Shown: positions 8,209 to 40,561 of the stretch, in pieces
Position numbering within the stretch: the first letter of the stretch is position 1
Layout: every line of letters begins with the position of its first letter
Assembly (NCBI GenBank): GCA_012517355.1
Contig: JAAYVD010000022.1
Coordinates: forward strand, 75,011-139,010
Direction: 5' to 3'
DNA: 64,000 nucleotides
Source of the DNA: Candidatus Rifleibacteriota bacterium
Lineage (GTDB): Bacteria; Muiribacteriota; Ozemobacteria; Ozemobacterales; Ozemobacteraceae
Notes under the pieces: model-generated
The model's input: the letters and a program-made list of their open reading frames with translations, nothing else
The model's database searches: none
What the model was told of the DNA's origin: nothing
Translations under genes and position numbers: made by a program

Positions 8209-8211
8209 GGT

Positions 8212-25223: not shown

Positions 25224-25925
25224 TCAGGGACCCTTGCCGAAGGTGTCGTCGTAGGTATACGTGCCGTCCGAGGCCACGTTGACCACGACCCCCCTCTTGG
25301 GGATCAACACCGTTCCCGAGGCGTCCTCCATGATGATCAGGTGGCGCTCGATCTTTTTGATCTCGAGGTCCTGGAAGGTATCGCCGGCCTTGTACAGGCG
25401 GCTGTCGAGAATGGCCATCAGATTGGTGGGGGTCTCGATGGTTCCCATGAAGGGGGCTTGGATGATCCGGGTGGTCTTGACGACCTTTTTCTCCTCCTCG
25501 GTTCCACTCTGCTGAACGGTTCCTGCCACCCTCTGCATTTCGAGGAACGGAGACGGTTCGAAGGGCATCCGCGGAAGGTCGGTGAAGGCCTGGATGACGG
25601 GATCGACGTCCGAAGCAACGTGGGACGGTGCGCTGGTCACGGCTTCGGCGTGGTCTTCCGGGTGGGCGGACTGCGAGGCCGCCGCATCGATCGGTTGTTC
25701 TTCCCCCGGTCCAGCGCCGGGGGCATCCTCCGAGCCCTCGGCCGTTGCCGCTCCCGGTGCCGAGGCGACGGGCGTGGTCTGGCTGGCGATCTCCAGGTCA
25801 TCCAGGCTCACCGCCACCGCCGCCTTTTTGGGTTTCGGCTTGATTTTCGGGCGGTTCTTGAACCAGTTGACCCCCATCGCCACCGACAGGACGATCAGGC
25901 TGAGGAAGAACAAGCGCTTCCCCAT
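25224..25925 (-). CDS. pilP: PilP-like inner-membrane pilus alignment protein
   Basis: N-terminal signal anchor, an acidic disordered linker and a C-terminal beta domain (AILDSRLYKAGDTFQDLEIKKIERHLIIME). It sits between pilO and the secretin. Confidence 0.55.
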   Translation of the reverse strand: MGKRLFFLSLIVLSVAMGVNWFKNRPKIKPKPKKAAVAVSLDDLEIASQTTPVASAPGAATAEGSEDAPGAGPGEEQPIDAAASQSAHPEDHAEAVTSAPSHVASDVDPVIQAFTDLPRMPFEPSPFLEMQRVAGTVQQSGTEEEKKVVKTTRIIQAPFMGTIETPTNLMAILDSRLYKAGDTFQDLEIKKIERHLIIMEDASGTVLIPKRGVVVNVASDGTYTYDDTFGKGP

Positions 25926-25927
25926 TT

Positions 25928-26557
25928 TTACCCCCCCTCTTCTGGTGGAGGCGGTGGCGCTACTGGACCGTTCAGGAACTCTTCAGGAAGGACGTAGACC
26001 GTGGGCAGCAGGTCGAACTTGAAGGTTCCGCTCGCATCCGCCGAAAGGGGGGGAAGATCGAGGAAGATCAGTTTCTCTTGTTTTTCCAAAAGGCGTAGAA
26101 AAATCCCGAGTTGGCTGAACGTTCCCTGGAAACTGATCTTGACCGGGTATTCCTCATACCGGACGGTTTCGAAGGTCCGCTCCTGCTTGGGTTGTGGGCT
26201 GATGCTCTTGATCTCCATCTTGGCAAGTTTGCCGACCTGCCGGAGGTTTTGGAGAAACTGGGAGGCCTCGGACTGCTTGTAACAGATCTTGACCGCGTTC
26301 TCGCGGGCCTTCCTGAACTCGTTGACCTCGAGCTGGATCTGCTCCTTGTTGGCCACCGCCTCCTCGAGTACCTGGATCTGGCTCTCGATACCCTTGTTCT
26401 TTTTCAGTTCCTTGGTCAGGAGCACGACCTGGGGGGAATACATGAACTTCCACCCAATGAACAGGATGGCTCCCAGAACCAGAAATGGCTGGGCCGCCAC
26501 CTTAGGGTCGGCCTTGGCTTTCTGCAGCCACTCGGTAAGGGAAAAACCCTCTGCCAT
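25928..26557 (-). CDS. pilO: PilO-like pilus assembly protein
   Basis: One N-terminal TM helix (FLVLGAILFIGWKF), a coiled coil and a C-terminal alpha/beta domain. Operon position after pilM/N. Confidence 0.7.
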   Translation of the reverse strand: MAEGFSLTEWLQKAKADPKVAAQPFLVLGAILFIGWKFMYSPQVVLLTKELKKNKGIESQIQVLEEAVANKEQIQLEVNEFRKARENAVKICYKQSEASQFLQNLRQVGKLAKMEIKSISPQPKQERTFETVRYEEYPVKISFQGTFSQLGIFLRLLEKQEKLIFLDLPPLSADASGTFKFDLLPTVYVLPEEFLNGPVAPPPPPEEGG

Positions 26558-26567
26558 GGTGGTTCTC

Positions 26568-28445
26568 CTAGCCCTCTGGAGGAGGCTCGCCGGCTGGGGG
26601 TTCCCCGCCCCCGCCTTCCCCTTCGGCCGGAGGAGGGGGAGGCTCGGGAATCACGATCTTGCCGGCCAGGGAGAACTTGATGAAAAAACGCTCTTCATCG
26701 ATGGGAACCTCTTCCGTCGATTCGAGGGCGGATCCCTTGAAAAAGGTCGAGTTGTTCAAGGCCTTGAGATACTCGAAAACCCGGTCGGAGGTGTCGGTAT
26801 GGCCCGCCAGCCTGAACACCCGCGGATCGGACCGTACCTGCAAATGGGCGTTGGTGAGAAAGATCTGGCGGGGGGTCGAACTGGCGAGATCGAGCAGGAT
26901 CTCTGACAGCGGCACCTTGCTTGCCATCAGGGCTTCAGTCAGGCCAGCCTCTCTCCCCAAGAGGTCTTTTTCCGCGAGCAGCTGGGTAACCTCGGCCTGG
27001 GATTCCGTAAGGTCATTGAGGCGGGCTTCCAGTTTCTTGGTGTCGTTCTTGGCCTTGGTGACATCCTGGCGGATCTTCACCAAGGGGAAAGACCCCACGA
27101 GCAGGACGAAGACGACGAGCAGGCCGGCCAGGATCCGGAGCTTGCCCTCGTCGAGCTGCAGGCTGATGCCCAGCTTCTGGGCGAACCCTGCCCCGAATTT
27201 CGAACTCACGCCCGAGAAATCGATCGCCTGCGCTCTCCGGTTGGGATACATGATGTCGATGAAGTTGATCACCTTGGCGTCCCGCAGCCCGTCGTAGAGG
27301 GCAACTCCCACGGCCGGAGCCAGGGCGGGGGTTTCCATCGGCAGCCGGTCGGGGGGAAAATTGGTGCTTGTCGGCGACAACGTCTTGAACGGGTCGGCCA
27401 GCTCGGCCGGCACCTCGAGGCTTTCCTGGATGAACTCCTTGAAATTCTTCATGGCCGCCGTCCCGCCCGACAGGATGATGCGGTCGATGGCGGTCTCTCC
27501 GAATTGGGAGATGTAGAAACTGACCGACAACTGGATGTGCTGGAAGATCTTTTCAACGGTGGCGAAGATCTGCTGCCCGGCCCACTTCTCGGCCCCCTTC
27601 ATCGCCTGTACTTCGTCGGGAGGAAGGACGCCGATCTTGTGCTTCAGTTCGACCACCTCGTCGACCGTCTTGAACTCGATCTTTTGCCCGTCCACTTCCC
27701 CCCCCGCGAAGATGGCCTCGGTGATGGTCTCACCCCCCATGTTGATATCGCGGTAGAAGTTCAGAACCCCGCCCTTGTAGATCATGATCGAGGTGGTCTT
27801 GTGGCCACAATGGATCAGGGCCACCTTGCCCTTTTCCCCGGCCGACTTGATCCCGGCGGGGAGGGCCAATTCGAGGGCCTGGGGGAGGGTCAGGACCCCC
27901 TCGTTCGACAAACCCCCGCCCTTCAGGTTGTCGGTCATGATTTTGACGATGTCCTGCTGGAGGGCGGCCACCATGACCTGTTTGAGGGCCTTTTCCTCCT
28001 TGACGATTTCCCCGATTTCCTGCCAGCCGAAGACGGCTTTCTCCATCGAGAAGGGCATCTGCTTGGCGGCCTCGGCATTCACGCTGGCGGCGAAGGCCTC
28101 TTTCTCGGGGGTGGGGGGAAGCTCGAAATAGCGAATGGTCACCGGCCGCCCGCTGGCCAGGGTGATTCCCCGTTTCGTCTGGATCTGGTTGTCATACAAA
28201 AGCTCGGTCAGGTGCTTGGTCAGGAACTTGATGAGTTTCTGGATGGCGTCATTTTCGACGTCTTCGCGGCTCATCTTCTCACGCTCTTCCGCGGTCAGCT
28301 GATGGACGAACGGCGGTATGCGCAGGTGGGCAAGGGCTTTCAAGACGGGTTTCCCGTCGTCACCGGCGATGACGTGGACAAACTTCAGGGAAAAACTCCC
28401 TATGTCCACCGCCACGAAAGGTTCGAATTTCGCTGGATCAGCCAT
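26568..28445 (-). CDS. pilMN: PilM-PilN fusion: an actin-like ATPase-fold PilM domain fused to TM + PilN-like coiled-coil/periplasmic domains
   Basis: N-terminus VAVDIGSFSLKFVHV is the PilM/FtsA-like motif. An internal TM helix (LAGLLVVFVLLVGSFPLV) is followed by a coiled coil. The C-terminal tail is Pro/Glu/Gly-rich. Confidence 0.8.
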   Translation of the reverse strand: MADPAKFEPFVAVDIGSFSLKFVHVIAGDDGKPVLKALAHLRIPPFVHQLTAEEREKMSREDVENDAIQKLIKFLTKHLTELLYDNQIQTKRGITLASGRPVTIRYFELPPTPEKEAFAASVNAEAAKQMPFSMEKAVFGWQEIGEIVKEEKALKQVMVAALQQDIVKIMTDNLKGGGLSNEGVLTLPQALELALPAGIKSAGEKGKVALIHCGHKTTSIMIYKGGVLNFYRDINMGGETITEAIFAGGEVDGQKIEFKTVDEVVELKHKIGVLPPDEVQAMKGAEKWAGQQIFATVEKIFQHIQLSVSFYISQFGETAIDRIILSGGTAAMKNFKEFIQESLEVPAELADPFKTLSPTSTNFPPDRLPMETPALAPAVGVALYDGLRDAKVINFIDIMYPNRRAQAIDFSGVSSKFGAGFAQKLGISLQLDEGKLRILAGLLVVFVLLVGSFPLVKIRQDVTKAKNDTKKLEARLNDLTESQAEVTQLLAEKDLLGREAGLTEALMASKVPLSEILLDLASSTPRQIFLTNAHLQVRSDPRVFRLAGHTDTSDRVFEYLKALNNSTFFKGSALESTEEVPIDEERFFIKFSLAGKIVIPEPPPPPAEGEGGGGEPPAGEPPPEG

Positions 28446-28608: not shown

Positions 28609-28647
28609 CCAAAGAAAAACCGGCGCCCCTGGGAGCAGGGACGCCGG
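28609..28647 (-). terminator. Rho-independent terminator downstream of the pilin gene
   Basis: On the minus strand the GC-rich hairpin CCGGCGUCCCUG-CUCC-CAGGGGCGCCGG is followed by UUUUUCUUU. Confidence 0.65.
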
Positions 28648-28662
28648 TATCGAGGCTCGCAG

Positions 28663-29211
28663 TTAGAATTTGACCCGGCTGACGGACACCAGGATGTCGT
28701 CGCCATCATAATTAGGGCCAGCGACGGTGGTAACCGCATCCATCGCGCCATCGGGGCCGGCAGAATGGAGGTAGATGCCTTTGTTCCAGTGATAGTACTT
28801 GATCTTGGCGTCCCAGGCATCCATCATGAATTCTTCGGGGTTGCTGTCCATGTAGGGGCCCTTCCACCGCTTGGAATAGGCGTTGATCCCCATGTTGGTG
28901 AATGTTCCGGTAACCGTATTGTTGACCAGGACATTTTTGTCGTAGGTGGCATCGAGAGCAACGGTATCCGCCGCGTTGATGGTGTTGGCCGATGAGGTGC
29001 TAGTGGTGTGGGGGAAGCGGCCGAGGTCGTTGTTGTAGTTCACCAGGGCGGTCTTCAGGTTGGTCATCGCTGCCTTGGTGGCGGCCGATTTGCCCTGGTC
29101 GGTGATGCTGCCGATCATCGGGCCGGCGACCGAGGCCAGAACCGCGATGACGATGATGACGACCATGATCTCCATCAGGGTGAAGCCTGCCCGCCTCGAA
29201 AGCCTGTTCAT
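28663..29211 (-). CDS. Type IV pilin / GspG-like major pseudopilin (prepilin with class III signal)
   Basis: RRAGFTLMEIMVVIIVIAVLA is the prepilin cleavage/methylation motif. Downstream KAAMTNLKTALVNYNNDLGRFP resembles GspG/PilA. It has its own promoter and terminator. Confidence 0.85.
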   Translation of the reverse strand: MNRLSRRAGFTLMEIMVVIIVIAVLASVAGPMIGSITDQGKSAATKAAMTNLKTALVNYNNDLGRFPHTTSTSSANTINAADTVALDATYDKNVLVNNTVTGTFTNMGINAYSKRWKGPYMDSNPEEFMMDAWDAKIKYYHWNKGIYLHSAGPDGAMDAVTTVAGPNYDGDDILVSVSRVKF

Positions 29212-29250
29212 CGGAATCCTCCTGCTGATTGCATTTCCCGGTTCGAAGGC

Positions 29251-29279
29251 AATATAGGAAATTCCATCGGCATCGTCAA
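29251..29279 (-). promoter_or_regulatory. Near-consensus sigma70 promoter for the pilin gene
   Basis: On the minus strand TTGACG - 17 nt - TATATT, about 35 nt upstream of the ATG. A GGAGG SD follows. Confidence 0.5.
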
Positions 29280-29332
29280 CCTCCCGATCAAGGGGAAAAT
29301 TCCCCTCGACCTTCTTGGGCCTTTGGGGTACG

Positions 29333-31507
29333 TCATTGCGGCAAGAAAACGCATTTTCCCATTTCCACTTCCTCGGGGGTGACCTTGAAGGTCACGGCAG
29401 CCGATGCTGCCTGCTCCAGGAATCTGAACTCGTAGTGGTCTTCCGTATGGACCCTTCCCCCGTGGTCGCCGGTCGGGTAGGCCACCCGGAAGCGGATTTC
29501 GCCAGCGGGGCCGGTTTTCCCCGTCACCTGATACGGCAGGTGCATGGCACCGAAAGTGATCCAGAGCCTGGCCGTGTAGGCGACCTCCGGGGGGCCCTGG
29601 CCGAGGATTTCCGCTCCCTCCACCACTTCGAAGATCTTGGTGAGCGCTCTGGATTTTTTATTGGAGGTGAGGAACCGGCATCGGAACCTGGACACCCCTT
29701 CCCAGGCGATGTTCTCCCTCCCCTGGAGGCCGAAGGAATCGAACAATTGGGCGATGGGAAGGGTTGGGGATGCGTTCTCCACCGGTCGTGGGGCCCTTCC
29801 CTCTTCCCGCGCCAGGACCGCCTCCATGACTTTCAGACTTTCCAAGACATCGGGAGTCAGAAAAAGAAACCGGATGTTGGCCTTCCGGCATTGGGTGTAG
29901 AGGTCATCTGGCTTCAGGGAAAGGAAGAGACGGGACATGGTGGCCACGCCTCTTTGGGTGTTTGCGGCAACGGTAGGACGCTGTCCGTAATAGGCAATGA
30001 AATTTCCCTCGTCCCAGAAATTCAGAACCCCATAGGCAGGCATTGAACCGTCAGCATAGCCGCCAGGGTCCGGCGTATGTTCCCGGAGCCATTGGATCCC
30101 CTCGAAAACATAGGGTACAAGAGGGTTTGGCTGGAGGAGGGTGCTGAAATTCAGGTGGAGCGAAAGAAGCACCGGGATGGCCAACAAAGCTGCCGTCCTT
30201 CCCGCCTTCCAGCCACTTGTCGGGGAACCCCCGATTGGCTTCAACACGTGGAATAGGTGAAATAGGACCAGCCCCAGGAGCAGGCCATTCGCCGGGCCCA
30301 TCCAGCGGAAAAACCTCGTCTGGACCAGCCCCAATCCCATGGTGATGAAAGCCCAATGGACGAGGATCCATATGTTCGGAAGCTTGGGGGACCGGTCGTT
30401 GGGAAAAACGGCCAAGAGGAGAAAGAAAGGATACAGGCCAAACCGCTCGAAAATTCTGAGAAGGTGGGAATCGATCATTCCCCACCCGGAAACATTGAGA
30501 ATGGAGCCCATTTCCTGAACCGTGGCGAGAATGGGATCCGTCCTGGCAAGGAACATCCCGCCTTCCTGGAGGGTCTTTGGGAAAACCAGGGCGATCAGGA
30601 CGCTTCCCGCCCCCAGCATGGCGAATCGGAGCGAGGTGGGGATCTTTTCCCCCAACCTGCTCTCCATCTGGAACATCAGGAAGAAAAATGCCCCACCCAG
30701 GATAACCAACGAGGCGTGGATCCATCCAAAGCCATCGAAGATCGATCCCGAAACCATGGGCGGGTACCGGAGGAAATACAAGGCGATCACCCCTCCGCCA
30801 ACCAGCATGCCGGAACCGGAAAACTCGAAAATCGCCTCACACTCGGGTTTTTTTGCCAACCACAGGACCAGCATCCAGGCTCCGAACAGGCCGAAGAAAA
30901 ACGGCGCTCCCTGCCAGGTTGCCAGGAAAGCCGCGCAGACCGCCCCTCCTAGAATCTTGAGTTCCGGGGCTCGGGACTGCACGTATCGGGTGCACAGGAA
31001 AATCCAACTCCAGAGCCACAAGTTCTCCAGCCAATGGTGATCGACCCCGAGGAAAGAATTGGTCAGGGCCTGGGGAAACCCGGGGAGACTACCGAGGGCA
31101 ACCAGGCAGCAGAAAGGAAAATTCCTGGTCAGTTTCCAAAGGGTGAGAACCATGAACAGGCTCAGGATTACACCGCCCAGTGGAGGGAAAATCCCGATGA
31201 TCAGTTCTGGCTGGGAAGTCAGAGAGGGCATGATGGCAAATGCCAGCTGGGTGAATTTGACGAGAAACCAGAGGTAAAGGGGGGGGAAATTGACGGTAAA
31301 TGTATCCGGGAAGGTCATGTACCGGTCGGTTTCGAGAGGGCGGCCTTGAAGAAGGGATTGCTCGAACCACCGGAGATACAGAACCGAATCCGGGTCACCC
31401 ATGGGGAACTTGCCTTCCCAGGGATGACACAATTCCACTTTATTGAAGGCCCAAACGAGTTGGACCAAGAAGAGAGCAGCCAGGATCCAGACTTGGCGGC
31501 GGGTCAT
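29333..31507 (-). CDS. Polytopic GT-C-fold membrane glycosyltransferase with features like the STT3/AglB/PglB (GT66) oligosaccharyltransferase family
   Basis: About 13 TM helices followed by a ~230-aa C-terminal soluble domain. Loop-1 acidic motif GDPDSVLYLRWFE. A TVQE motif (compare TIxE/SVSE of EL5). FWDEGNFIAYY just after the last TM, at the position of WWDYG. It sits immediately upstream of the pilin gene. Confidence 0.5.
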   Translation of the reverse strand: MTRRQVWILAALFLVQLVWAFNKVELCHPWEGKFPMGDPDSVLYLRWFEQSLLQGRPLETDRYMTFPDTFTVNFPPLYLWFLVKFTQLAFAIMPSLTSQPELIIGIFPPLGGVILSLFMVLTLWKLTRNFPFCCLVALGSLPGFPQALTNSFLGVDHHWLENLWLWSWIFLCTRYVQSRAPELKILGGAVCAAFLATWQGAPFFFGLFGAWMLVLWLAKKPECEAIFEFSGSGMLVGGGVIALYFLRYPPMVSGSIFDGFGWIHASLVILGGAFFFLMFQMESRLGEKIPTSLRFAMLGAGSVLIALVFPKTLQEGGMFLARTDPILATVQEMGSILNVSGWGMIDSHLLRIFERFGLYPFFLLLAVFPNDRSPKLPNIWILVHWAFITMGLGLVQTRFFRWMGPANGLLLGLVLFHLFHVLKPIGGSPTSGWKAGRTAALLAIPVLLSLHLNFSTLLQPNPLVPYVFEGIQWLREHTPDPGGYADGSMPAYGVLNFWDEGNFIAYYGQRPTVAANTQRGVATMSRLFLSLKPDDLYTQCRKANIRFLFLTPDVLESLKVMEAVLAREEGRAPRPVENASPTLPIAQLFDSFGLQGRENIAWEGVSRFRCRFLTSNKKSRALTKIFEVVEGAEILGQGPPEVAYTARLWITFGAMHLPYQVTGKTGPAGEIRFRVAYPTGDHGGRVHTEDHYEFRFLEQAASAAVTFKVTPEEVEMGKCVFLPQ

Positions 31508-31721
31508 TTCACGGGTGCCTCATCAACCAAGGGGAAATGCCAAGGGATGCATGTTGCAAACCGTTTGCCTTCCTACTACTGTGGAATGTGTGATAAATTC
31601 GCGATCCGCTCAGGTGGGTGAATCTTCAGGGTAACCGGATCTGCCGGGTTTGTCCAGATTTCTATGAGGCCCCCAGCCCGCCGTCCGGATCGATCCGCGA
31701 CCGAAGACAGGTGATGCCGGG

Positions 31722-34100
31722 ATGGCGGAGGGACGGCAGAATCCCCCGTTTGTCCGAGACCCGGGGATGGCTGCTCATCGAGTGGGATTCGGCAGGAGAA
31801 GAATGTCGGCGTTGATGGATGGACAACGGTCAGGGCAGGACGGGGGGGCAAGCCCGACGGTGGAGCAGGGTTCGGGGCCCGCCCTGGTTGGTTCACCGTT
31901 TCCAATAAAAGCGGAGGCTTCCCAGTCAGAAGCGGAATCTGGAAAGCCGTCGCCTTCAGCCGTCTGGTGGGTCCTTCCCTGGTGGCTGGCCGGCATTCTT
32001 GGAATCATCGGCTATCCGCTCCTTTCGGGAGCGGTCCAGCCGAAATGGGATTCCCTGCATCTCGGGTATCCCTCCATTGTCTTCATGACCGATGCCTATG
32101 CCGAAGGACGGTTCCCCCTCTGGGACCCGTACACATCTTGCGGTTATCCCTTCCATGCGGCTTTGGGTGGGATTCTCAGCCCGCTCTACATCCTCGCCGG
32201 AAAACTCTTCGCCAACGGCGGGACCGGGTATGCCATGATCTGGTTGTTCATCTGGTGGTGGGCGGGGGTGGGAATCTTGGTCTGGTGCCGTTCACGGGGG
32301 TATTCCCCCTGGGGCGGCCTCTTGGCGGCGATGACCTTCATGTTCTCGGGGATTTTTGTGGGGACTGCCCCGCAAATCTCCATCCTTTCCGTCGGCGCCT
32401 GGACTCCCTGGCTCATCTGGTGCATCGAGCAGGGAACCCTTCGCCATCACCTCGGATTCGGGCTCCTGGCTGGCCTTTGCGGAGGCCTCGGAGCTCATGG
32501 GGGGTATCCAACCCTCCATGCATTCTCCTTTCTCGTCGCCGCGGGGTGGGTCCTACTCGATAGCTGGTTCCGGCTCCGTTCCGAGGGCCTTCAGGGGCAG
32601 TTCCCCGCCTGGTTGAAGGGGGTCCTGACCAACTGCCTCCTTGCCGGCGTCATCACCCTCCTCGTGTGGGCCCCCGCCGTGACTGCGTTTCTGCAGGAAG
32701 GGGCGGGGTTCACCGACCGGGTCGATCCCCTGCCGGCGGAGGTGGCCAACCATTATGGCATTTTCCCTCCCTCGGCCATGCCTTCGGTCTTCTTCCCGTA
32801 TCTTTCCATCGCAGGTCTGAACGTCCTCCCCTGGGATGTCGCCCTGACCAACGGGTTCTGTGGAATTTTCACCCCCTTTCTCCTCCTGTTTTTCTTCCTG
32901 GAACGCCGAAAGCAGGGAAAGACCCCTTGGCCATGGATCCTGTTCGTGGGGTTCATGATCCTCATGTCCTTCGGCGGGAAAGGGGTCGTCCGGTTGTTCG
33001 TGAACGTCCTTTTCCCGCCCCTGAAATACATGCGACACAGCTCCTTTTTCCGGGTTTTCTGGATGCTCGGCCTTTCCCTCTGGCTCGGCGAGGCGGTCAC
33101 CACCCTCCTCGACTCCCGGTCGGCCACCAGGGAGGCCTCGCTCCGCCAGGCATGGTGCTGGTTCGCCGCCCTGGTCGGCCTGGCCGCTCTCGGCGTGACC
33201 TGGCTCCTGCCCCTGGAAACCGCATCCTTCCGGGTGTTGATCCGGATCTTCTGCCCCGGGGTATTGGGCTTGGTGGGTGCGGCACTGTTGGTGCGGTTCT
33301 TCTCCCAGCCGACAACGGGGAACGCCCGCTGGGGGTGGCTGGCCCTTCTGCTCCTCGTCCACCTCGACCTGGGTTTCCATTTCTGGAACAACCAGTTCAC
33401 CGTCTGGGAACCCGCCAACGACATCCCATGGGCCGAGAGCCGTCGCGTGCGGCAGACGACCATCCTTGGGGAGCCGGGGGGCCGGGGCCCTCCCTTCGCC
33501 TTCGGGTTCTTCAACGCCCAGCAGGTGCTCAAGGTTTTCGTGGCGCAAGGGTACATCACCATGAAGGACCAAGGGTTCGACGAGATCCTTTGCCGGAGCC
33601 CGTTTCTTTCGGTCCTGCGGTCGCCGGTCCGCTTCTGGCTTACCCCCGCCTGGCAGATCGGGGTTCCCCGCGAGGAGATTCTGCAACGGTTGAAGGACGT
33701 TTCCGCCTCGCATCCCGTCCCCGTGCTCCTCGAAGCATCGGAATCCCTGGCCCCCGGGTCGGGGGTGCCGGTGGTACCAGGAACCCTCGGCCAGGTGGCT
33801 TGCCGGAAGTTCTCTCCTGAGGAGATTGAACTTTCTGTGAACAACCCTGGTTCCGCCCCCCTCATGCTCGCCACCACCGAACGGTTCGCCGCGGGGTGGA
33901 AAGGATGGGTGGACGAGGTGCCGACCCAGGTTCTCAAGGTGAATGGGTGTTTCCGGGGAATGCTGGTGCCCCCGGGGAAGCACGAGGTGGTTTTCCGGTA
34001 TCTCCCGGCGGGGTGGCATGCCCTGGTGGCTCTCTCGCTTGCCACCTTCCTGCTCACGATCCTGTTGACGGTGTGGGCTTTCCGTTTCCGGAAGGCATGA
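31722..34100 (+). CDS. YfhO-like large membrane protein (GT-C-type periplasmic glycosyltransferase candidate). The true start is probably downstream of 31722.
   Basis: About 14 N-terminal TM helices, a ~190-aa extracytoplasmic domain and a final C-terminal TM helix (LATFLLTILLTVWAF), which is the YfhO topology. The N-terminal 60 aa of the ORF look like non-coding extension. Confidence 0.5.
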   Translation: MAEGRQNPPFVRDPGMAAHRVGFGRRRMSALMDGQRSGQDGGASPTVEQGSGPALVGSPFPIKAEASQSEAESGKPSPSAVWWVLPWWLAGILGIIGYPLLSGAVQPKWDSLHLGYPSIVFMTDAYAEGRFPLWDPYTSCGYPFHAALGGILSPLYILAGKLFANGGTGYAMIWLFIWWWAGVGILVWCRSRGYSPWGGLLAAMTFMFSGIFVGTAPQISILSVGAWTPWLIWCIEQGTLRHHLGFGLLAGLCGGLGAHGGYPTLHAFSFLVAAGWVLLDSWFRLRSEGLQGQFPAWLKGVLTNCLLAGVITLLVWAPAVTAFLQEGAGFTDRVDPLPAEVANHYGIFPPSAMPSVFFPYLSIAGLNVLPWDVALTNGFCGIFTPFLLLFFFLERRKQGKTPWPWILFVGFMILMSFGGKGVVRLFVNVLFPPLKYMRHSSFFRVFWMLGLSLWLGEAVTTLLDSRSATREASLRQAWCWFAALVGLAALGVTWLLPLETASFRVLIRIFCPGVLGLVGAALLVRFFSQPTTGNARWGWLALLLLVHLDLGFHFWNNQFTVWEPANDIPWAESRRVRQTTILGEPGGRGPPFAFGFFNAQQVLKVFVAQGYITMKDQGFDEILCRSPFLSVLRSPVRFWLTPAWQIGVPREEILQRLKDVSASHPVPVLLEASESLAPGSGVPVVPGTLGQVACRKFSPEEIELSVNNPGSAPLMLATTERFAAGWKGWVDEVPTQVLKVNGCFRGMLVPPGKHEVVFRYLPAGWHALVALSLATFLLTILLTVWAFRFRKA

Positions 34101-34142
34101 TTCCCGGGGGGCGGGAAGCCCTTCCCGGCCGAGGGTCTGCGG

Positions 34143-35597
34143 TCAGCCCGACCGCTTCCAGGCGAGGAGGGTGAGGGCGATGCGGGCCTTCTGCAGGAAG
34201 TCCCGCCAGCTCGAGAGGCGGCGGAAGCGCTTCCACAGGTAGGAGGGGCGGAAGTAGAAGCGCCAGTTCAGACCGCGGAGGATCCGGTCGAGGCGCGGTT
34301 TCTTCAAATGGGGGTAGGAAATGAAGGACTCCCGCATCGGGTCGATCGGCTCATACTCGGGCCTGATCATCCATCCCTTCGCCCGGGCGATCGCGTTGAA
34401 TTCCGTGAAGGGGAAGGGCGTGCAGATCGAGAACAACACGTAGTCCACGTCCAGTTTCAGGAGCTCCCGGAAGGTGTGATCGATCGTGGCCTCCGTCTCG
34501 AGGGGAGAGGAGGCCAGCAGGATGTTCAGTTCCGGTTCGATCCCGGCCGCCTTGACGTTGGCCACGGCGGGCCCGATCTGCTCGACGCGGTAGCCCTTGC
34601 CGATGTCGTCGATGATCGCCTGGGAAAAGGATTCCACGCCGATGTCGATGTAGCGGCAGCCCGCCCTGCCCATGGCGTGAAGGATTTCCGGGTCCTGCAG
34701 GCGGTCCACGCGGGCCAGACAGGACCATTCCAACCCGAGCGGTTGCATGCCCTCGGCGATGGCCAGAGCCCGCTCCTTTCCCCAGATGAACTGGTCGTCG
34801 AGGAACGAGATGGCCCGGAACCCTTCCCGGGCGAGGCTGGCGCACTCCGCCACGACATTGGCCGCGCTCCGCAGGCGGACGGGAGGCTTGCCGTGGGGCT
34901 CCGCCCAGCGCTTGAACTCGATTTCCCGGGCGAAACTCTGGGAATTGGGCACGCAGAACCGGCAGGCATACCCGCATCCGCGGGAGGCGACCATCGTGGT
35001 GCAGGGAGACCGGGACAACTTGGGGTTGCCGAAATCCAGGCCCCGAAGGAAAGACCGGTCGGGGAAGGGGAGGCTGTCGAGGTCCTCCAGCAGTGGTGGG
35101 GCGGCGGTGCCCACGGGACTCCCCCCGTCGAGGAAGGAGATGCCGGGAACGGAGGCGAGCGGGCGTTTCCCGAGAAAGGCTTCGAGCAGGGCGAGAACGC
35201 GGGTTTCGGGTTCCCCGCGGATGACGACCGAGGTGGAATCGAGGAACCGCTCGGGGGTGGCGGTGGGTTGGGTGGAGAAGAAGACGAACCGGGTGTGGGG
35301 ATGCCTTGCCTTCAGGGCATCGCGGGCCAGCAGGTCGGTGGCCGCCGAGAGAAAGACGGTGGAGAGGAACACGACGTCGTGGTCGAGAGAGTCGGCATCC
35401 CGCAGGAACTCGTTCTTCCCCTTGCCGGCGGCGGGGTAATCCCGATACTCGGTGGGGTATCCGGCCTGCCGGAGCATGGTGGCCGGGTACAGCAGGAAGA
35501 TGTTGGCCTGGGAATACAGCCCGTAGTTGCAGCCGAAGATCCGTTCGGCGGCGGGCTTGCCATCGAGGGCGGGGGGCACCAGGAACAGGCATCTCAT
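34143..35597 (-). CDS. B12-binding-domain radical SAM enzyme. The start ATG overlaps the upstream GT2 stop as ATGA.
   Basis: N-terminal B12-binding-like domain (MRCLFLVPP...). CxxxCxxC radical SAM cluster motif RGCGYACRFC. The 626-aa ORF extension upstream is in the GT2 gene's region and is spurious. Confidence 0.8.
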   Translation of the reverse strand: MRCLFLVPPALDGKPAAERIFGCNYGLYSQANIFLLYPATMLRQAGYPTEYRDYPAAGKGKNEFLRDADSLDHDVVFLSTVFLSAATDLLARDALKARHPHTRFVFFSTQPTATPERFLDSTSVVIRGEPETRVLALLEAFLGKRPLASVPGISFLDGGSPVGTAAPPLLEDLDSLPFPDRSFLRGLDFGNPKLSRSPCTTMVASRGCGYACRFCVPNSQSFAREIEFKRWAEPHGKPPVRLRSAANVVAECASLAREGFRAISFLDDQFIWGKERALAIAEGMQPLGLEWSCLARVDRLQDPEILHAMGRAGCRYIDIGVESFSQAIIDDIGKGYRVEQIGPAVANVKAAGIEPELNILLASSPLETEATIDHTFRELLKLDVDYVLFSICTPFPFTEFNAIARAKGWMIRPEYEPIDPMRESFISYPHLKKPRLDRILRGLNWRFYFRPSYLWKRFRRLSSWRDFLQKARIALTLLAWKRSG

Positions 35598-36421
35598 GCG
35601 GCGGTCCTTCCTTGCCAGCCGAATTCCGAGAGCAGATAGGCCCATCGGATGGCAGCGGCGGGCAGCGCTTGCAGGGCCATTTCCAGCCCGAACCGCAGGA
35701 GGTCGGCGGTCTCCCAACGGTATCCCAGGCGTCGGACCGCCTCGCGCTTGACCTTGAGGGTGGCCCCCAGCACCTCTTTCACCCTGGCCATGCGGGTGGC
35801 CTGGGGCGACAGGCGGTAGTCCAGGAGAACCTCGTCCAACGCGGCCAGGCGGCCCCAGCGGGCGATCTCCAGCCACAGGAAGTAGTCCTCGGCGTACCGG
35901 AACGCTTCCCGGTAGCGAAGCCGGTGACCGGGAACCAATGAGCGGCGGATCATGACCGTGGGATGGAGGAGCGGATTGGCCCACAGCGGGGATCCAGCCA
36001 CGCGGCAGGACCGGATCCTGCACAGGCTCCGGCCGTCGCGGTCGATGTAGCGGAGGGCGGTTCCGACCACCGCCACGTCGGGGTTGGCCTCGAGGAAATC
36101 CACCTGCCGGCGGAACCGCTGCGGGTGGGCGAGGTCGTCGGCGTCCATGCGGGCGAGAAAGCGCCCCTGGCAGGCGGCGAGGCCCCGATTGAGGGCCCGG
36201 ACGATACCCGTGTTCACCGTCAGGGAGATGACCCGCAGGCGGTCGTCACGGGCGGCGGCTTCCCGGAGGAGGGAGGCCGTGTCGTCCGTGGATCCGTCAT
36301 CGACCGCCACCAGTTCGAAGTCGCCGAAGCTCTGGGCGAAGACGCTGTCCAGGGCCGGCCGGAGGTGTTCCCCTCCGTTGTAAACCGGCATCAGGACGGA
36401 AATAATGGGCGGGATCGTCGT
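35594..36421 (-). CDS. Family 2 glycosyltransferase (GT-A fold). I assume a GTG start at 36421.
   Basis: ISVLMPVYNGGEHLRPALDSVFAQSF...ELVAVDDGSTDDT...RMDADD shows the DxD/GT2 signature. The Pro/Arg-rich N-terminal 37 aa of the longest ORF look spurious. Confidence 0.75.
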   Translation of the reverse strand, partial: TTIPPIISVLMPVYNGGEHLRPALDSVFAQSFGDFELVAVDDGSTDDTASLLREAAARDDRLRVISLTVNTGIVRALNRGLAACQGRFLARMDADDLAHPQRFRRQVDFLEANPDVAVVGTALRYIDRDGRSLCRIRSCRVAGSPLWANPLLHPTVMIRRSLVPGHRLRYREAFRYAEDYFLWLEIARWGRLAALDEVLLDYRLSPQATRMARVKEVLGATLKVKREAVRRLGYRWETADLLRFGLEMALQALPAAAIRWAYLLSEFGWQGRTAA

Positions 36422-36449
36422 CACCCTGGCCTTCCCTGGACGATTCCTC

Positions 36450-36842
36450 TCACCTGGATCGTCCCACGCCCTGGGTCTGGGCTTTGAGGATGGCCAGCTC
36501 CTGGACGAGGTTCTTGATCTGGGTGGTGACCGTGGCATCCCGCATCGAGGCTTGGAGGGCCAGCACCATCAGGAACAGTTGTCCGAAAAAGAAGATGGCC
36601 GAGGCCGGGGCGGCGATTCCCAGGAAATGGGTGAGCCGCCGCAGGATCGGGTAATTGGTTCCCAGCAGGAAGGTGAGCGACCCGACGCCCAGCCAGAGCC
36701 ACGAGTCGTCTTCCTTGACCTTCCGACGTCGGACGAGTTCCAGGGTGAGGAAGAACACGGCGGCGCTCAGGCTGACGATCAGGGTGCGCTGCCGCGGGGG
36801 CAGGTCGCTGGCTTCGGGGTCGTTGGTCATGGGCGTCTCCAA
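36450..36842 (-). CDS. Small 3-TM membrane protein of the kind found next to GtrB-like GT2 genes (DUF2304/GtrA-like candidate)
   Basis: 130 aa, three TM helices, a C-terminal amphipathic/coiled segment. Located between two GT2 genes. Confidence 0.5.
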   Translation of the reverse strand: METPMTNDPEASDLPPRQRTLIVSLSAAVFFLTLELVRRRKVKEDDSWLWLGVGSLTFLLGTNYPILRRLTHFLGIAAPASAIFFFGQLFLMVLALQASMRDATVTTQIKNLVQELAILKAQTQGVGRSR

Positions 36843-36894
36843 TCGGCGAAAGATGGTCAGGAGCGGGAAGTGAGTCGGGAAGCGAGTGCGGGCG

Positions 36895-37635
36895 TCAGTC
36901 GGCCTTCCAGAAACTCAACCCTCCCATGTGGCGCAGGAAGATCATGAAGGAAGCCATCAGCATTTTGGCGCAGTAGCGGACGGGGTGGAAGAACCCCGAG
37001 TGCATGCTCTTGGTCCCCGGCGGGGGATGCATGATCACATCGACCTCCCGCATGCGGACTCCGGCATACCGCATCATGATGTAGACGTCGGCGTCGGGGA
37101 AGTCCAGGGGGAAGTGGTCCCGGGTCAGGAGGGCGAGGGCTTTGCGGTTGTAGGCCCGGAAGCCGGAAGTGGGGTCCTGGGGCGGAATACCGGAAAACCA
37201 GCCGATCATCCAGGAGAAGAACCGGCGACCGATCCGGCGGAGCAGGGGAGACTGGTAATCCGATCCGGGATGGTAGCGGTTGCCGATGACGCAATCGGCC
37301 TCTCCGGCCAGCAGCGGGTCGAGGATCCGGGGAATCATGGTGGGGTCGTGCTGTCCGTCGGCATCCATCTGGACGAGGAAGGAAAACCCTGCCTGGAGGG
37401 CATACTTGTACCCGGTCTGCAGCGCCCCGCCGTAGCCGAGGTGGATGGGGAGCTTGAGGCACAGGACTCCCAGGTCGCGGGCCACCCGGGCGGTATCGTC
37501 GGCCGACCCGTCATCGACCACCATGGGGAGCGTGTGGGGGGGAAGGTTCGCCAACAGGGTGCGGAGGGTGCGGGGCAGATTTCCGGCCTCGTTGAAGGCG
37601 GGGATGATGACCAGGATGTGGGCCGGCGCTGTCAT
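36895..37635 (-). CDS. GtrB/DPM1-like family 2 glycosyltransferase (polyprenyl-phosphate sugar synthase type)
   Basis: ILVIIPAFNEAGNL...VVDDGSADDT...VQMDADGQHDP...C-terminal TM helix. The start ATG at 37635 was verified. The N-terminal part of the 647-aa ORF is the antisense shadow of pilC. Confidence 0.8.
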   Translation of the reverse strand: MTAPAHILVIIPAFNEAGNLPRTLRTLLANLPPHTLPMVVDDGSADDTARVARDLGVLCLKLPIHLGYGGALQTGYKYALQAGFSFLVQMDADGQHDPTMIPRILDPLLAGEADCVIGNRYHPGSDYQSPLLRRIGRRFFSWMIGWFSGIPPQDPTSGFRAYNRKALALLTRDHFPLDFPDADVYIMMRYAGVRMREVDVIMHPPPGTKSMHSGFFHPVRYCAKMLMASFMIFLRHMGGLSFWKAD

Positions 37636-37646: not shown

Positions 37647-38852
37647 CTACTTCATCTGCTGGACGATCGAGAAGAGCGGCATGAAGACCGACAGGGCGAT
37701 GCCGCCGATCATGACGCCCATGACGACGGTCAGGATGGGAGTCAGGGCGGCGGTCAGGCCGTCGAGGGCTTCGGCCACCTCCTGGTCGAAGAAGTCGGCC
37801 GCCTTTTCCAGCATCTTGTCGAGGTTGCCGGAGTTCTCGCCGACCTCGATCATCTTCTGGACCATGGTGGGGAAGAGGTAGCTGCCCTTGATGGTGGCGG
37901 CGAGGCGTTTGCCACCCTGGACCCCGACGGCCATATCTGCGATCAGGTTTTCGAACAGCTTGTTGCCCATGACCGAACCCGTGATCTTGAGAGCGTTGAG
38001 AATGGGCACGCCGGCGGCCAGCAGGGAGCAGAAGGTGCGGCAGAAGCGGCTGACGGCGACCTTCTTGGTCAGGTTCCCAACGATGGGGGCGCGGACGGCG
38101 AACTGGTTCATCAGGGATTCGCCGATCTCGGTCTGGAGGAACACGTAGATCCCGACCACGGTGGCCGCCGTTCCTCCCAGCCACATGACATAGTTGTCCA
38201 GGAGGCTGTCCGACAAGAAGATCAGGAGCTTGGTGATGGCCGGGAGTTCGGCCTTCATCTTCTTGAACATCTTGGTGAAGTTCGGGAAGATCTTGACCAG
38301 CAGGAACACCACGCAACCTACGGCCAGCACCAGCTGCACGACCGGCATGGTCAGGGCGCCCTTGACCTTGCCGCGCATCTTCGAGTCGGCTTCGGCGAAG
38401 GCGGCCAGCCGGGCCAGGACCTTGTCGAGCATGCCGCCCGCCTCGCCGGCCTCGACCATGTTGCAGAAGATGTTGTTGAAGACCTTGGGATACTTGCGCA
38501 ACCCGGCGGAGAACGGCTGGCCGCTCTGCAGGTCCTTGCCGATCTTTTCCAGGACGCTCTTGAAGAAGGGGTTTTCCGTCTGGTCGCACATGATGCCGAC
38601 CGCCTCGACCAGGGGGATGGCGGAGCCCACCAGGGTCGACAGCTGGACGGTGAAGACCATCAGCTCCTTCGAGGAGACGCTTCCCCCGAACATGCCGCCG
38701 AACCCGCCCGCTTCCTTGGCGGCGGTGGCCTTGACGAGATAATACCCCTTGTCGGACAGGATGGAGGCGAGCTTCTGGATGCTCTCGGCCTCGATCGAAG
38801 TCTTGAGGATCTCGCCTTTGGAGTTCTTGACTTCGCAATCGTATTTCGGCAT
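37647..38852 (-). CDS. pilC: Type IV pilus / T2SS inner-membrane platform protein (GspF/PilC family)
   Basis: 401 aa. Two repeated cytoplasmic domains with three TM helices. The ...GNLDKMLEKAADFFDQEV... pattern is typical of the family. Confidence 0.9.
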   Translation of the reverse strand: MPKYDCEVKNSKGEILKTSIEAESIQKLASILSDKGYYLVKATAAKEAGGFGGMFGGSVSSKELMVFTVQLSTLVGSAIPLVEAVGIMCDQTENPFFKSVLEKIGKDLQSGQPFSAGLRKYPKVFNNIFCNMVEAGEAGGMLDKVLARLAAFAEADSKMRGKVKGALTMPVVQLVLAVGCVVFLLVKIFPNFTKMFKKMKAELPAITKLLIFLSDSLLDNYVMWLGGTAATVVGIYVFLQTEIGESLMNQFAVRAPIVGNLTKKVAVSRFCRTFCSLLAAGVPILNALKITGSVMGNKLFENLIADMAVGVQGGKRLAATIKGSYLFPTMVQKMIEVGENSGNLDKMLEKAADFFDQEVAEALDGLTAALTPILTVVMGVMIGGIALSVFMPLFSIVQQMK

Positions 38853-38884: not shown

Positions 38885-40561
38885 TCAATCGGCGCGGCAC
38901 AGGGCGAACACTTCGTCGGGGGTGGTCAACCCCTGGGTGAACTTCAGGATGATGTCGTCTTTCAGGGTTTTCATCCCGGATTGGATGGCGACCTTCATCA
39001 GGTCGTCGCCGGGGGCCTTCTGGATGATCAGGCGCCGGATGCTCTCGTTGGTATACATCACCTCGTGCACGCCGACGCGGCCCTTGTACCCGGTGGTGGC
39101 GCATTTTTCACAGCCCTTTCCCCGGTAATACGTGCCGTTGATGGCCTCGGGAGGCAGCCCGAGGGTCTGCAGGACCTCGGGGGTGATGTTCCCATCGACG
39201 TCCTTGCAGAACTTGCAGACGCGGCGGGCCAGGCGCTGGGAGACGATGCACAGGAGGGCCGCCGAGACCAGGAAGGGCTCGACGCCCATGTCGATCAGGC
39301 GGGAGGCGGTGCTGGGGGCATCGTTGGTGTGCAGGGTGGCGAACACCAGGTGGCCGGTCAAGGCCGCCTCGACCGCGATGGTGGCCGTCTCCTCGTCGCG
39401 GATCTCGCCGAGCATGATGACGTCGGGGTCTTGTCGGAGGAAGGCGCGCAGCACCTTCGAAAAGTCGAGGTCGATCTCGGGGCGCACCTGCACCTGGTTG
39501 ATCAGCTTGAGCTTGTACTCGACGGGGTTTTCGACGGTACAGATGTTCATGTCGACGCCCTTGATGGCGTTGAGGCAGGCATACAGGGTGGTCGTCTTTC
39601 CTGAGCCCGTCGGGCCGGTGACCAGGACCATGCCGTTGGGCGCGGCGATGGCTTTCTGCACCAGTCCGAAGTTGTATGGGGTGAAGCCCATTTGCTCGAG
39701 ATTGACCTGGACGTTTGATTTGTCGAGGATCCGGAGGCAGACCTTTTCTCCGTAGGCCACGGGAATGGTGTTGACGCGGAAATCGATCGGCTTGTCCATG
39801 ATCGTCATCTGGATGCGGCCGTCCTGGGGGATGCGGCGCTCGGAGATGTCCATGGATGAAAGGATCTTGAGGCGCGAGACCAGCGAGGCCTGCGCCTCGG
39901 GCTGCAGGGTCATCGAAACCATCAGGCTGCCGTCGATGCGCAGCCGCACCCGCAGTTCGCCTTCGTCGGGCTCGATATGGATGTCGCTGGCCCCTTTCTG
40001 CACCGCCTGCGTCAGGATCAGGTTGCACAGCTTGATGATCGGGGTGTCGTCGCTGGCCTTCTTCAGGGCGTCGAGTTCGCCGGCCGAGGCCTGCCCGTCC
40101 CCCATCGTGGCGAGGGCGTCGGCCATGGCGCCGGCCACGTACAGCTTGTCGAGGTTGTCGTTGATCTGGTTTTCCGAGCAGATGGCGCGCACGACCTCGC
40201 AGTTGTTCTGGAACTGGATCTCGTCGATGATGAACACGTCGAGCGGGTCGGCCATGCCGATCATCAGGCTCTTGCCGTCGAAACTGATGGGGATCAGCAG
40301 GTGCTTGCGGGCGATCTTCTCGGGCACCATCTTCAGGACCTCGGGCTTGACCTCGACCTTCGACAGGTCGACGAACGGCACCTTGAGCTGCTTTCCCAGG
40401 ATCGGCAGCAGTTTGTCCTCGGACAGGTAGCCGAGCTCGATGAGGACCTGGCCAATGCGCTTGCCGCGCTTCTTCTGCTCGGCGAGCCCGATGTTGAGCT
40501 CCTTCTCGCCGATGTGGCCGGCCTCAATGAGCATCTCGCCGATCTTCTTCCGTTTGAACAT
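38885..40561 (-). CDS. pilB: Type IV pilus assembly ATPase (GspE/PilB family)
   Basis: N-terminal GSPII_E_N-like domain. Walker A GPTGSGKTT. Asp box and His box. Tetracysteine motif CKFC...CEKC. Confidence 0.9.
   Translation of the reverse strand: MFKRKKIGEMLIEAGHIGEKELNIGLAEQKKRGKRIGQVLIELGYLSEDKLLPILGKQLKVPFVDLSKVEVKPEVLKMVPEKIARKHLLIPISFDGKSLMIGMADPLDVFIIDEIQFQNNCEVVRAICSENQINDNLDKLYVAGAMADALATMGDGQASAGELDALKKASDDTPIIKLCNLILTQAVQKGASDIHIEPDEGELRVRLRIDGSLMVSMTLQPEAQASLVSRLKILSSMDISERRIPQDGRIQMTIMDKPIDFRVNTIPVAYGEKVCLRILDKSNVQVNLEQMGFTPYNFGLVQKAIAAPNGMVLVTGPTGSGKTTTLYACLNAIKGVDMNICTVENPVEYKLKLINQVQVRPEIDLDFSKVLRAFLRQDPDVIMLGEIRDEETATIAVEAALTGHLVFATLHTNDAPSTASRLIDMGVEPFLVSAALLCIVSQRLARRVCKFCKDVDGNITPEVLQTLGLPPEAINGTYYRGKGCEKCATTGYKGRVGVHEVMYTNESIRRLIIQKAPGDDLMKVAIQSGMKTLKDDIILKFTQGLTTPDEVFALCRAD

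Follow-up and report, generated by a model that had tools for sequence, protein, structure and literature searches.

A candidate pilin-associated glycosylation island with an AglB-like oligosaccharyltransferase in the type IV pilus cluster of Candidatus Riflebacteria

The DNA analyzed here is a stretch of 64,000 nucleotides (hereafter, the window) from a metagenome-assembled genome (MAG) labelled Candidatus Riflebacteria, in which a type IV pilus cluster is split, between pilC and the pilin gene, by six genes of glycosylation type (29333-37635). In the reading favoured here, to which a probability of about 0.55 is assigned, this region is a pilin-associated, archaeal-style protein-glycosylation island, the constant core of which is an AglB-like STT3 oligosaccharyltransferase gene beside the major pilin gene. 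The former (29333-31507, minus strand; GX442_02510) encodes a 724-aa homologue of the AglB/STT3 family with an AglB_core-like domain and an archaeo_STT3 match, and its neighbour (28663-29211, minus strand) encodes a GspG-like type IV prepilin of 182 aa, the candidate acceptor. The first-pass annotation, made from the sequence alone, had described six such genes, two of them for GT-C membrane transferases and one for a B12 radical SAM (S-adenosylmethionine) enzyme. The gene calls were tested by Pfam and NCBIfam hidden Markov model (HMM) scans of the window proteins; all six genes were found at their coordinates, and the HMM searches supported their identities. The layout of pilus genes and six-gene island was also present as described, except that the YfhO-like gene lies on the plus strand, opposite the rest.

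The AglB-like gene and its pilin neighbour in related loci

Related loci were retrieved using the pattern [FY]WDxGNx[IL][AT]Y, which ignores gene context, with confirmation by tblastn, and the window proteins were then mapped onto them; the retrieval was based on a 12-sequence alignment, the 33-sequence alignment of the family being too diverse for that purpose. This yielded 14 loci from species-representative genomes and 15 metagenome loci, and adjacency was counted in those with enough flanking sequence (13 genome and 8 metagenome loci, some metagenome loci duplicating genome loci). The taxonomically labelled genome loci belonged to Riflebacteria, Ozemobacteraceae or Rifleibacterium. The AglB-like gene adjoined a GspG-like pilin gene in 21 of the 21 evaluable loci (13/13 and 8/8, respectively), and its position was constant, between the pilin-PilMN-PilO-...-PilQ block and PilC-PilB. 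The pair was present wherever it could be evaluated, both in Riflebacteria-labelled and in unlabelled MAGs, and the synteny that the first-pass annotation had proposed to examine was borne out for the AglB-like gene. In most loci, the two genes were divergent and separated by approximately 100-300 bp (approximately 1 kb in locus L006), and in L009 the order pilin-GT2-DUF2304-AglB was found on a single strand (GT2, family 2 glycosyltransferase).

Identity to the window copies was 80-87% for PilB, 63-94% for PilC, 54-90% for PilMN and 44-73% for the pilin (29% in L004), whereas identity between loci was merely 26-35% for the AglB-like protein. In L011, the closest relative of the window, PilC and PilMN were 94% and 90% identical to the window proteins, yet the AglB-like protein was only about 28-35% identical; the arrangement there was pilC, AglB-like gene and pilin, with the other five island genes absent. 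This divergence, together with the missing genes, points to replacement of a whole allele rather than to gradual divergence. Since the YfhO-like gene was not conserved and L011 holds the AglB-like gene only, the constant partner of the pilin appears to be the AglB-like gene alone, the other five genes being variable cargo. The divergence of the AglB-like proteins and the changing cargo resemble the strain-specific glycan variation of other pilin and O-antigen loci. Searches of open papers and bioRxiv revealed neither a described link between an AglB-type enzyme and bacterial type IV pilins nor any account of glycosylation in Riflebacteria; the earlier impression that such an arrangement had not been described was thus upheld by the literature searched.

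Several peculiarities of single loci should be noted. The AglB-like gene of L011 (1029-3145) contains an apparent frame break at ~1292-1301. Tandem AglB-like genes stand beside the pilin gene in L007 (567-5074), L008 (10001-14589) and L031 (20-3318), each copy being ~25-27% identical to the window protein. In L017, which represents a different lineage, a more distant STT3 homologue that passes the Pfam STT3 model lies beside two prepilin genes and a YfhO gene. There, three candidate GT-C membrane proteins (5021-13498), namely, a 929-aa YfhO protein, the Pfam-STT3 protein and a membrane protein of 543 aa whose C-terminus carries TPR, surround the prepilin genes, which carry NGT, NST, NTT and NTA motifs; the 543-aa protein, for which there is no Pfam hit on record, is read by us, on the basis of its sequence, as TMTC/PMT-like.

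Enzyme class of the AglB-like protein

In the Pfam scan, the 724-aa protein matched AglB core and peripheral domains only (AglB_core-like, the one match above its cutoff, 31.4 bits against 27), and the NCBIfam model archaeo_STT3 (TIGR04154) covered residues 58-531 (E = 2.6e-33; 115 bits against a cutoff of 450). Its C-terminal domain matched the solved globular domains of the short AglBs of Archaeoglobus fulgidus. A word-indexed protein search found the query alone, and the same search with the family alignment found six proteins, mostly of archaeal type. When 1.8 billion cluster representatives were scanned in full with HMMER, 331 proteins reached E ≤ 0.001, and the 40 among them with E ≤ 1e-30 were mostly full length with 23-35% identity; past approximately E = 1e-20, the homologues were archaeal. 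When a family profile built from 33 members was compared with the PDB, it matched the long A. fulgidus enzyme AfAglB-L (3WAJ) from end to end, C-terminal peripheral domain included (E = 4.2e-27), and reached STT3A at ~1e-8; it did not reach PglB in this sequence search, and membership of the PglB lineage was rejected on this ground.

The AlphaFold (AF2) model calculated from the 33-sequence alignment had a pLDDT (predicted local distance difference test) of 87.3 and a pTM (predicted template modelling score) of 0.87, whereas a single-sequence run gave a pLDDT of only 39.5. In the model, approximately 13 long helices precede residue 460, and a mixed alpha/beta domain comes after them. In the Foldseek comparison with the PDB, the top matches were AfAglB structures (7E9S, 3WAK and 5GMY; template modelling (TM) scores of 0.72-0.78, with TM 0.78 and E = 4e-24 for 7E9S), followed by eukaryotic STT3 (STT3A/B and yeast Stt3, TM ~0.6), DPY19 (TM 0.60) and PglB (TM ~0.48).

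The motifs that define the STT3 family, including D47, D161/H163, E360 and WWDYG of AfAglB, have been described (PMC8342417). In the window protein, the first DXD motif is D38-P39-D40; D40, the equivalent of AfAglB D47, was invariant in the 33 family members and in all pilus-linked copies with an N-terminus, and a conserved Arg lies six residues downstream, the same spacing as between D47 and R53 of AfAglB. The second DXD motif, D156-H157-H158, aligned with the AfAglB DHH (D161/H163); D156 was invariant, and some relatives had the variants D-Y-D or D-Y-H. The TIXE motif was represented by T329-V-Q-E332, aligned with T-I-A-E (E360) of AfAglB, and both E332 and R398 were invariant. The counterpart of WWDYG was F497-W-D-E-G501 (family consensus [FY]WDxGN), in which the W-D-x-G core is kept and the first Trp and the Tyr are replaced. 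For the DK/MI motif, the counterpart was the MI-like M524-S-R-L527 (M-A-E-I/V/L in relatives), a region that is shifted by one residue relative to the AfAglB-S DK motif in the HMMER alignment. The catalytic motifs were kept in all 15 pilus-linked copies, with D40, D156, E332 and R398 invariant and [FY]WDxGN conserved. The protein is a divergent but apparently catalytically competent STT3 enzyme of AglB type, nearer to the archaeal enzymes than to PglB, as judged from sequence and modelled fold. The first-pass description of an STT3/PglB-like protein thus holds for the STT3 family, whereas profile and fold indicate the AglB type rather than the PglB type.

It is highly improbable that the AglB-like gene has lost its activity and survives as a relic, or that it serves pilus biogenesis in a purely structural, non-catalytic way. 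Such a view would be favoured by the very low identity between relatives, by the scores under the curated family cutoffs and by the G+C content at third codon positions (GC3), which is 0.71 in the AglB-like gene (0.77 in the YfhO-like gene) against 0.81-0.92 in the neighbours. However, apart from L011 with its apparent frame break, the reading frames are full length; the catalytic residues do not vary among copies that are 26-35% identical, and the structure is confidently predicted.

Acceptor, donor supply and variable cargo

The pilin is the favoured acceptor of the AglB-like enzyme, the sole positive evidence being the conserved adjacency, which we regard as strong. Several observations weigh against a pilin-directed island. 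Every genome concerned is an uncultured MAG. The AglB-like protein had no match to Pfam STT3 (PF02516) at E ≤ 0.01 and falls below the curated STT3 thresholds, i.e., it is a divergent member. In 13 pilins, 21 N-x-S/T sequons were found against 24.6 expected from composition; no sequon column was conserved across these pilins, and those of L001 and L014 had no N-x-S/T at all, although the neighbouring AglB-like genes keep every catalytic motif. In L038 (436-3888), a family member follows pilC with no pilin nearby, and a HEAT-repeat gene and an ATP synthase operon come next, while two paralogues occur in non-pilus contexts (L018 and L037), the copy in L018 (1664-7213), from another Riflebacteria genome, beside a 1849-aa Big_5 surface protein. 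The islands of L011 and L012 lack the GT2+DUF2304 pair considered below, and the donor can therefore be made elsewhere. Among the genes of the window's island, no flippase, initiating phosphoglycosyltransferase or nucleotide-sugar gene was recognised, so that the completeness which the first-pass annotation had ascribed to the glycosylation module was not borne out.

The same annotation had cited two N-x-T sites of the window pilin, VNNTV and NTVTG, in support of the pilin as substrate. Only one sequon, N97-N-T, is present (2.3 expected from composition), NTVTG being none, and in view of the counts given above the sequon argument was abandoned. Most pilin sequons fall in a hypervariable loop around a conserved NVLV motif, a region that is rich in N, S and T in any case. 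No conserved sequon was found in PilO, the two unnamed open reading frames (ORFs) of the cluster or PilMN, and the conserved sequons of PilQ are uninformative, because cytoplasmic PilB holds equally conserved ones. The large surface proteins and other exported proteins of the window likewise showed no sequon enrichment. Consequently, sequon enrichment was rejected as evidence for pilin N-glycosylation, and sequon counts do not separate a pilin-dedicated enzyme from a general one. One surface protein of the window (8212-15900, minus strand; 2562 aa) contains 17 Big_5 repeats and a Kelch propeller and has 10 sequons against 10.5 expected.

A general N-glycosylation enzyme with many periplasmic or surface substrates, in the manner of Campylobacter PglB or archaeal AglB, the adjacency to the pilin reflecting the location of the island and not a dedicated pair, is an unlikely alternative. 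It would account for the two sequon-free pilins beside intact-looking enzymes and for the paralogues near the Big_5 protein of L018 and in the other non-pilus context of L037; moreover, the window itself encodes the 2562-aa Big_5/Kelch protein and a protein with SLH domains, and the giant Big_5 proteins of the window and of L018 could be alternative substrates. On the other hand, in none of the 21 evaluable loci was the adjacency lost, extreme though the sequence turnover is; sequons are not enriched in other exported proteins of the window, and pilin-dedicated transferases encoded beside pilA are common in bacteria (TfpO, TfpW and PglS).

Still less probable is that the AglB-like protein modifies the pilin at a site other than N-x-S/T or by a different chemistry. 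The replacement of the first Trp of WWDYG by Phe or Tyr, the variant DK/MI region (M-x-x-L/I/F), the partner pilins without a sequon and the presence of DPY19, a GT-C C-mannosyltransferase, among the structural matches could be explained in this way. However, the W-D of WWDYG, the TIxE and the MI-like motif are all kept, which correspond to the Ser/Thr pocket and the sequon-binding frame of solved oligosaccharyltransferases (PMC8342417), the fold match to AglB is far better than that to DPY19 (TM 0.78 vs. 0.60), and no alternative Asn-containing acceptor motif is invariant in the pilins.

The donor would be supplied by genes between the AglB-like gene and pilC. The last of these (36895-37635, minus strand) encodes a 246-aa GT2 resembling polyprenyl-phosphate-sugar synthases of the PpgS/GacI/AglJ kind (Pfam Glycos_transf_2, 1.3e-23, 84 bits; DAD motif at residues 91-93). 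Its best NCBIfam matches were PpgS (2.6e-24; 86 bits against a cutoff of 370) and AglJ (3.6e-17; 63 bits against a cutoff of 325), which indicates similarity at the family level only. Directly downstream, a gene for a small membrane protein (36450-36842, minus strand) matched DUF2304 (PF10066; 6.8e-21, 75 bits against a cutoff of 25.5), i.e., the GacJ/Rv3632 family. GacJ and Rv3632 are small membrane proteins that bind and stimulate the GT2s GacI and PpgS, which make undecaprenyl-phosphate-HexNAc (N-acetylhexosamine) for GT-C transferases (bioRxiv 10.1101/180810). Since the GT2+DUF2304 pair resembles the polyprenyl-phosphate-sugar synthase pair GacI/GacJ, the DUF2304 protein is probably an activator subunit of the adjacent GT2, and the role of flippase partner first given to it was rejected. 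This pair was the most recurrent cargo, present in at least 9 of the 11 islands with full coverage.

The second GT2, which is EpsE/TuaG-like (35594-36538, minus strand; Pfam Glycos_transf_2, 1e-33; NCBIfam EpsE and TuaG), probably starts at GTG 36424, as the sequence suggests, in which case its overlap with the DUF2304 gene disappears; its stop codon overlaps the start of the radical SAM gene. The latter (34143-35597, minus strand) encodes a B12-binding (class B) radical SAM enzyme with the CX3CX2C motif CGYACRFC at residues 208-215 (Pfam Radical_SAM, 1.4e-13, 51.8 bits, above the cutoff; B12-binding, 6.8e-07, 29.6 bits, slightly under the cutoff of 32.1). Its best NCBIfam match was HpnJ (1e-50), an identity that was rejected because the score of 169.8 bits is far under the cutoff of 577.6 and no hopanoid genes occur in the window. 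Orthologues of the whole radical SAM-GT2-DUF2304-GT2 block were found in the same order in L005 (50-58% identity; 57% for the radical SAM enzyme).

The remaining gene of the island (31722-34100, plus strand; NCBI start at ~31803, giving 765 aa) encodes a YfhO-like GT-C membrane protein with at least seven predicted hydrophobic segments. Pfam YfhO matched the C-terminal 78 residues only (29.5 bits, cutoff 28.5); for homologues with 37-41% identity, a PF09586 match is precomputed, and a PDB sequence search with the protein gave no match. The gene was missing from all 14 related genome loci, and the two homologues whose surroundings were inspected (37% and 39% identity) are located away from pilus clusters, beside GT2-methyltransferase fusions. 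It was therefore rejected as a conserved partner of the pilus cluster, contrary to the pilus linkage proposed for it initially.

In other loci, the cargo between the AglB-like gene and pilC varied and included one to four B12 radical SAM paralogues, GT2s, SAM methyltransferases, AsnB-type amidotransferases, UDP-galactopyranose mutase and GT-C-like membrane proteins (PMT_2-like in L005 and PTPS_related in L004). In L001 (12145-22114) and L006 (12286-21861), four B12 radical SAM paralogues each were found together with an AsnB-type glutamine amidotransferase and a GT2; four class B radical SAM enzymes per glycan locus are an unusual concentration. In L005 (18419-22071), a GT2 fragment (residues 204-239), a PilC fragment (residues 1-145) and a second DUF2304+GT2 copy look, from their sequences, like scars of duplication or insertion within the island.

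This variability bears on another unlikely explanation, namely, that the five non-STT3 genes decorate a non-protein envelope polymer by a GacI/GacJ/GacL or CsbB/GtcA/YfhO route, have nothing to do with the pilin and came to lie in a gap of the pilus cluster that is prone to recombination. The characterised GT2+DUF2304 and YfhO systems are all known to modify polysaccharides or teichoic acids and not proteins (bioRxiv 10.1101/180810; PMC5836110); the YfhO-like gene is missing from the genome loci and has homologues outside pilus clusters, and the closest relative, L011, lacks the whole block. However, GT2+DUF2304 is present in most pilus-linked islands, and in L009 the pair lies between the pilin and AglB-like genes on the same strand. 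Further islands have second GT-C genes of other kinds (PMT_2-like in L005, PTPS_related in L004, and YfhO with the TMTC-like protein in L017), which suggests that a functional association with the locus is recurrent.

Under the favoured reading of a pilin-associated glycosylation island, the following sequence of steps may be envisaged. The 246-aa GT2 with DUF2304 would produce a polyprenyl-monophosphate sugar, probably HexNAc, at the cytoplasmic face, as do GacI/GacJ or PpgS/Rv3632; this step is suggested by homology and by the recurrence of the pair across islands. The lipid-linked sugar might then, speculatively, be extended or modified by the second GT2 together with the B12 radical SAM enzyme translationally coupled to it, and a flippase, none being recognised in the island, would bring the donor to the periplasmic face. 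There, the AglB-like enzyme would transfer the glycan to an Asn of an exported protein, for which the conserved adjacency favours the pilin (N97-N-T in the window). The YfhO-like GT-C might, again speculatively, use a polyprenyl-phosphate sugar at the outer face on the protein-bound glycan, on Ser/Thr of the pilin or on another envelope polymer. A. fulgidus AglB uses dolichol-monophosphate-linked glycans as donors. A monophosphate-linked donor is plausible here because of the AglJ-like GT2, the lack of a phosphoglycosyltransferase gene in the island and the dolichol-phosphate with which the closest solved relative, AfAglB, was crystallised (PMC8342417).

Known systems compared and surrounding genes of the cluster

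The locus is most like the AglB-dependent glycosylation of pilins and archaellins in Archaea, where AglB glycosylates both (PMC5131992), and by analogy its genomic logic is like that of the Pseudomonas TfpO/TfpW cassettes. The enzyme family is that of archaeal AglB (Methanococcus, Haloferax and Archaeoglobus), which also provides the closest solved structure (AfAglB, TM 0.78); further features in common are the catalytic motifs, including the DHH form of the second DXD, the AglB_L1 peripheral domain and a type IV pilin-like protein as candidate acceptor. The AglJ-like GT2 points to a donor on a monophosphate lipid, which is also the case in Euryarchaeota. In contrast, the Riflebacteria host is diderm and its pilus machine includes a secretin. 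The window protein is ~150 residues shorter than AfAglB-L and has [FY]WDxGN instead of WWDYG, its gene is physically linked to that of the pilin, a bacterial polyprenol would serve as lipid carrier, and the pilins have few sequons and sometimes none.

Oligosaccharyltransferase-dependent (en bloc) bacterial N-glycosylation is known in essence only for PglB of Campylobacterota and some Desulfobacterota. Like the PglB systems of Campylobacter and Desulfovibrio, the island combines a bacterial single-subunit STT3-family oligosaccharyltransferase, with TIXE and an MI-like motif, and glycan-assembly genes; unlike them, it has neither a PglC-type initiating enzyme nor a PglK flippase, its pilins lack the extended D/E-x-N-x-S/T sequon, the family profile fails to reach PglB and the fold match is much weaker (TM ~0.48). 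The AglB-like family thus appears, from sequence and modelled structure, to be a bacterial lineage separate from PglB and closer to archaeal AglB.

Bacterial pilins are known to undergo O-glycosylation by Wzy_C-type enzymes or TfpW, the latter drawing on a polyprenyl-phosphate sugar. In Pseudomonas aeruginosa TfpO/PilO and TfpW and in Acinetobacter PglS, as in the loci studied, the transferase gene lies directly beside the major pilin gene, and pilin and transferase vary together as a strain cassette. However, these enzymes are O-linking and none is an STT3 homologue: TfpO, PglL and PglS are Wzy_C-family proteins, and TfpW represents another GT-C family (bioRxiv 10.1101/2020.04.19.049825 describes TfpW as a GT-C enzyme). 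Neither Pfam nor NCBIfam revealed a Wzy_C domain among the island proteins; the locus is no PglB-type pgl locus and contains no Wzy_C O-oligosaccharyltransferase.

In its donor supply, the locus resembles GacI/GacJ/GacL or CsbB/GtcA/YfhO (PMC5836110). The three-component systems GacI/GacJ/GacL, PpgS/Rv3632/Rv3779 and CsbB/GtcA/YfhO have in common with the island a GT2 of the polyprenyl-phosphate-sugar synthase kind paired with a DUF2304 activator, as well as GT-C transferases, those of the island being YfhO-like and AglB-like. Whereas the known systems decorate rhamnan, arabinogalactan or teichoic acids and not proteins, the island has no recognised GtcA-, GtrA- or Wzx-like flippase gene and includes a B12 radical SAM enzyme, which is foreign to them. 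With HpnI/HpnJ, it shares the best NCBIfam match of the radical SAM enzyme (HpnJ, 1e-50) and the translational coupling to a GT2, but the score is 170 bits against a cutoff of 578, hopanoid genes are not found nearby and the island GT2 does not match HpnI.

Taken together, the pair of pilin and AglB-like genes suggests a candidate, undescribed bacterial route for pilus glycosylation. It may tentatively, and with less confidence than the island itself, be regarded as a third bacterial Asn-glycosylating lineage, independent of PglB, nearest to euryarchaeal AglB and possibly derived from Archaea, which would be dedicated to the pilin, use polyprenyl-monophosphate-linked, radical-SAM-modified sugars and form a strain-diversifying cassette of pilin and transferase; a bacterial type IV pilus would then have been joined to N-glycosylation of archaeal style. 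An enzyme of AglB type linked to the pilin gene throughout a candidate phylum would add a new bacterial lineage to those with STT3-dependent glycosylation, would mirror the archaeal N-glycosylation of type IV filaments and would bear on the transfer of glycosylation machinery between domains. Glycoengineering would also gain new single-subunit oligosaccharyltransferases, which might be less demanding as to the sequon and accept donors on monophosphate lipids. The smallest testable unit is the four genes of L009, namely, pilin, GT2, DUF2304 and the AglB-like gene.

The pilus cluster of the window extends on the minus strand from the secretin to PilB and is supported by Pfam HMMs. The pilin has the class III signal peptide ...RRAG|FTLMEIMVV, of the G|F-x-x-x-E type, and matched N_methyl (27.7 bits, cutoff 21.2) and T2SSG (27 bits, cutoff 21), falling short of the GspG equivalog TIGR01710 (56 bits against a cutoff of 88.85). 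A sigma-70-like promoter (29251-29279, minus strand; TTGACG-17-TATATT, 10/12 positions), the best promoter-like site of the region, is predicted in the 121-bp gap between the AglB-like and pilin genes, and directly after the pilin stop codon lies an intrinsic-terminator-like hairpin (28619-28648, minus strand) with a 13-bp stem containing 10 G-C pairs, followed by TTTTTCTTT. The promoter-like site upstream and the G+C-rich hairpin downstream fit a separately and strongly expressed major pilin.

On the other side of the pilin follow, all on the minus strand, a PilM-PilN fusion (26568-28445; PilM_2 at residues 56-383 and PilN at residues 516-592), PilO (25928-26557; Pfam PilO, 3e-11), two conserved ORFs of 157 and 233 aa (24690-25163 and 25224-25925) and a PilQ-type secretin (22493-24640; Pfam Secretin, 3e-49, and Secretin_N), which is syntenic in related loci. 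The fusion of PilM and PilN in one 625-aa protein is kept in all related loci. The two ORFs, which had no Pfam or NCBIfam match, occupy the same position in 11-12 related loci and are candidate PilP-like or accessory genes. Beyond the island lie, on the same strand, the genes of the platform protein PilC (37647-38852; Pfam T2SSF, 9e-58), the assembly ATPase PilB (38885-40561; Pfam T2SSE, 6e-131, and MshEN) and a TPR protein, possibly PilF/PilW-like (40591-41340; Pfam TPR families), which is syntenic in relatives with 67-79% identity.

The surroundings of the cluster include a plus-strand gene (20461-22344) for a protein with SLH and CarboxypepD_reg domains, which adjoins the secretin gene and is kept there in L001, L002, L003 and L005. 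The cluster is flanked by genes of the partner-switching type, both on the minus strand, for a STAS protein (19590-19949) and a GAF-SpoIIE phosphatase (42106-43734), the latter being syntenic with PilB in relatives. A CarboxypepD_reg + fn3 + beta-helix architecture was found in the window (59151-61490, minus strand) and at the island edge of L004 (13692-15710), and two neighbouring HAMP/adenylate-guanylate cyclase proteins are encoded on the plus strand of the window (3-5350).

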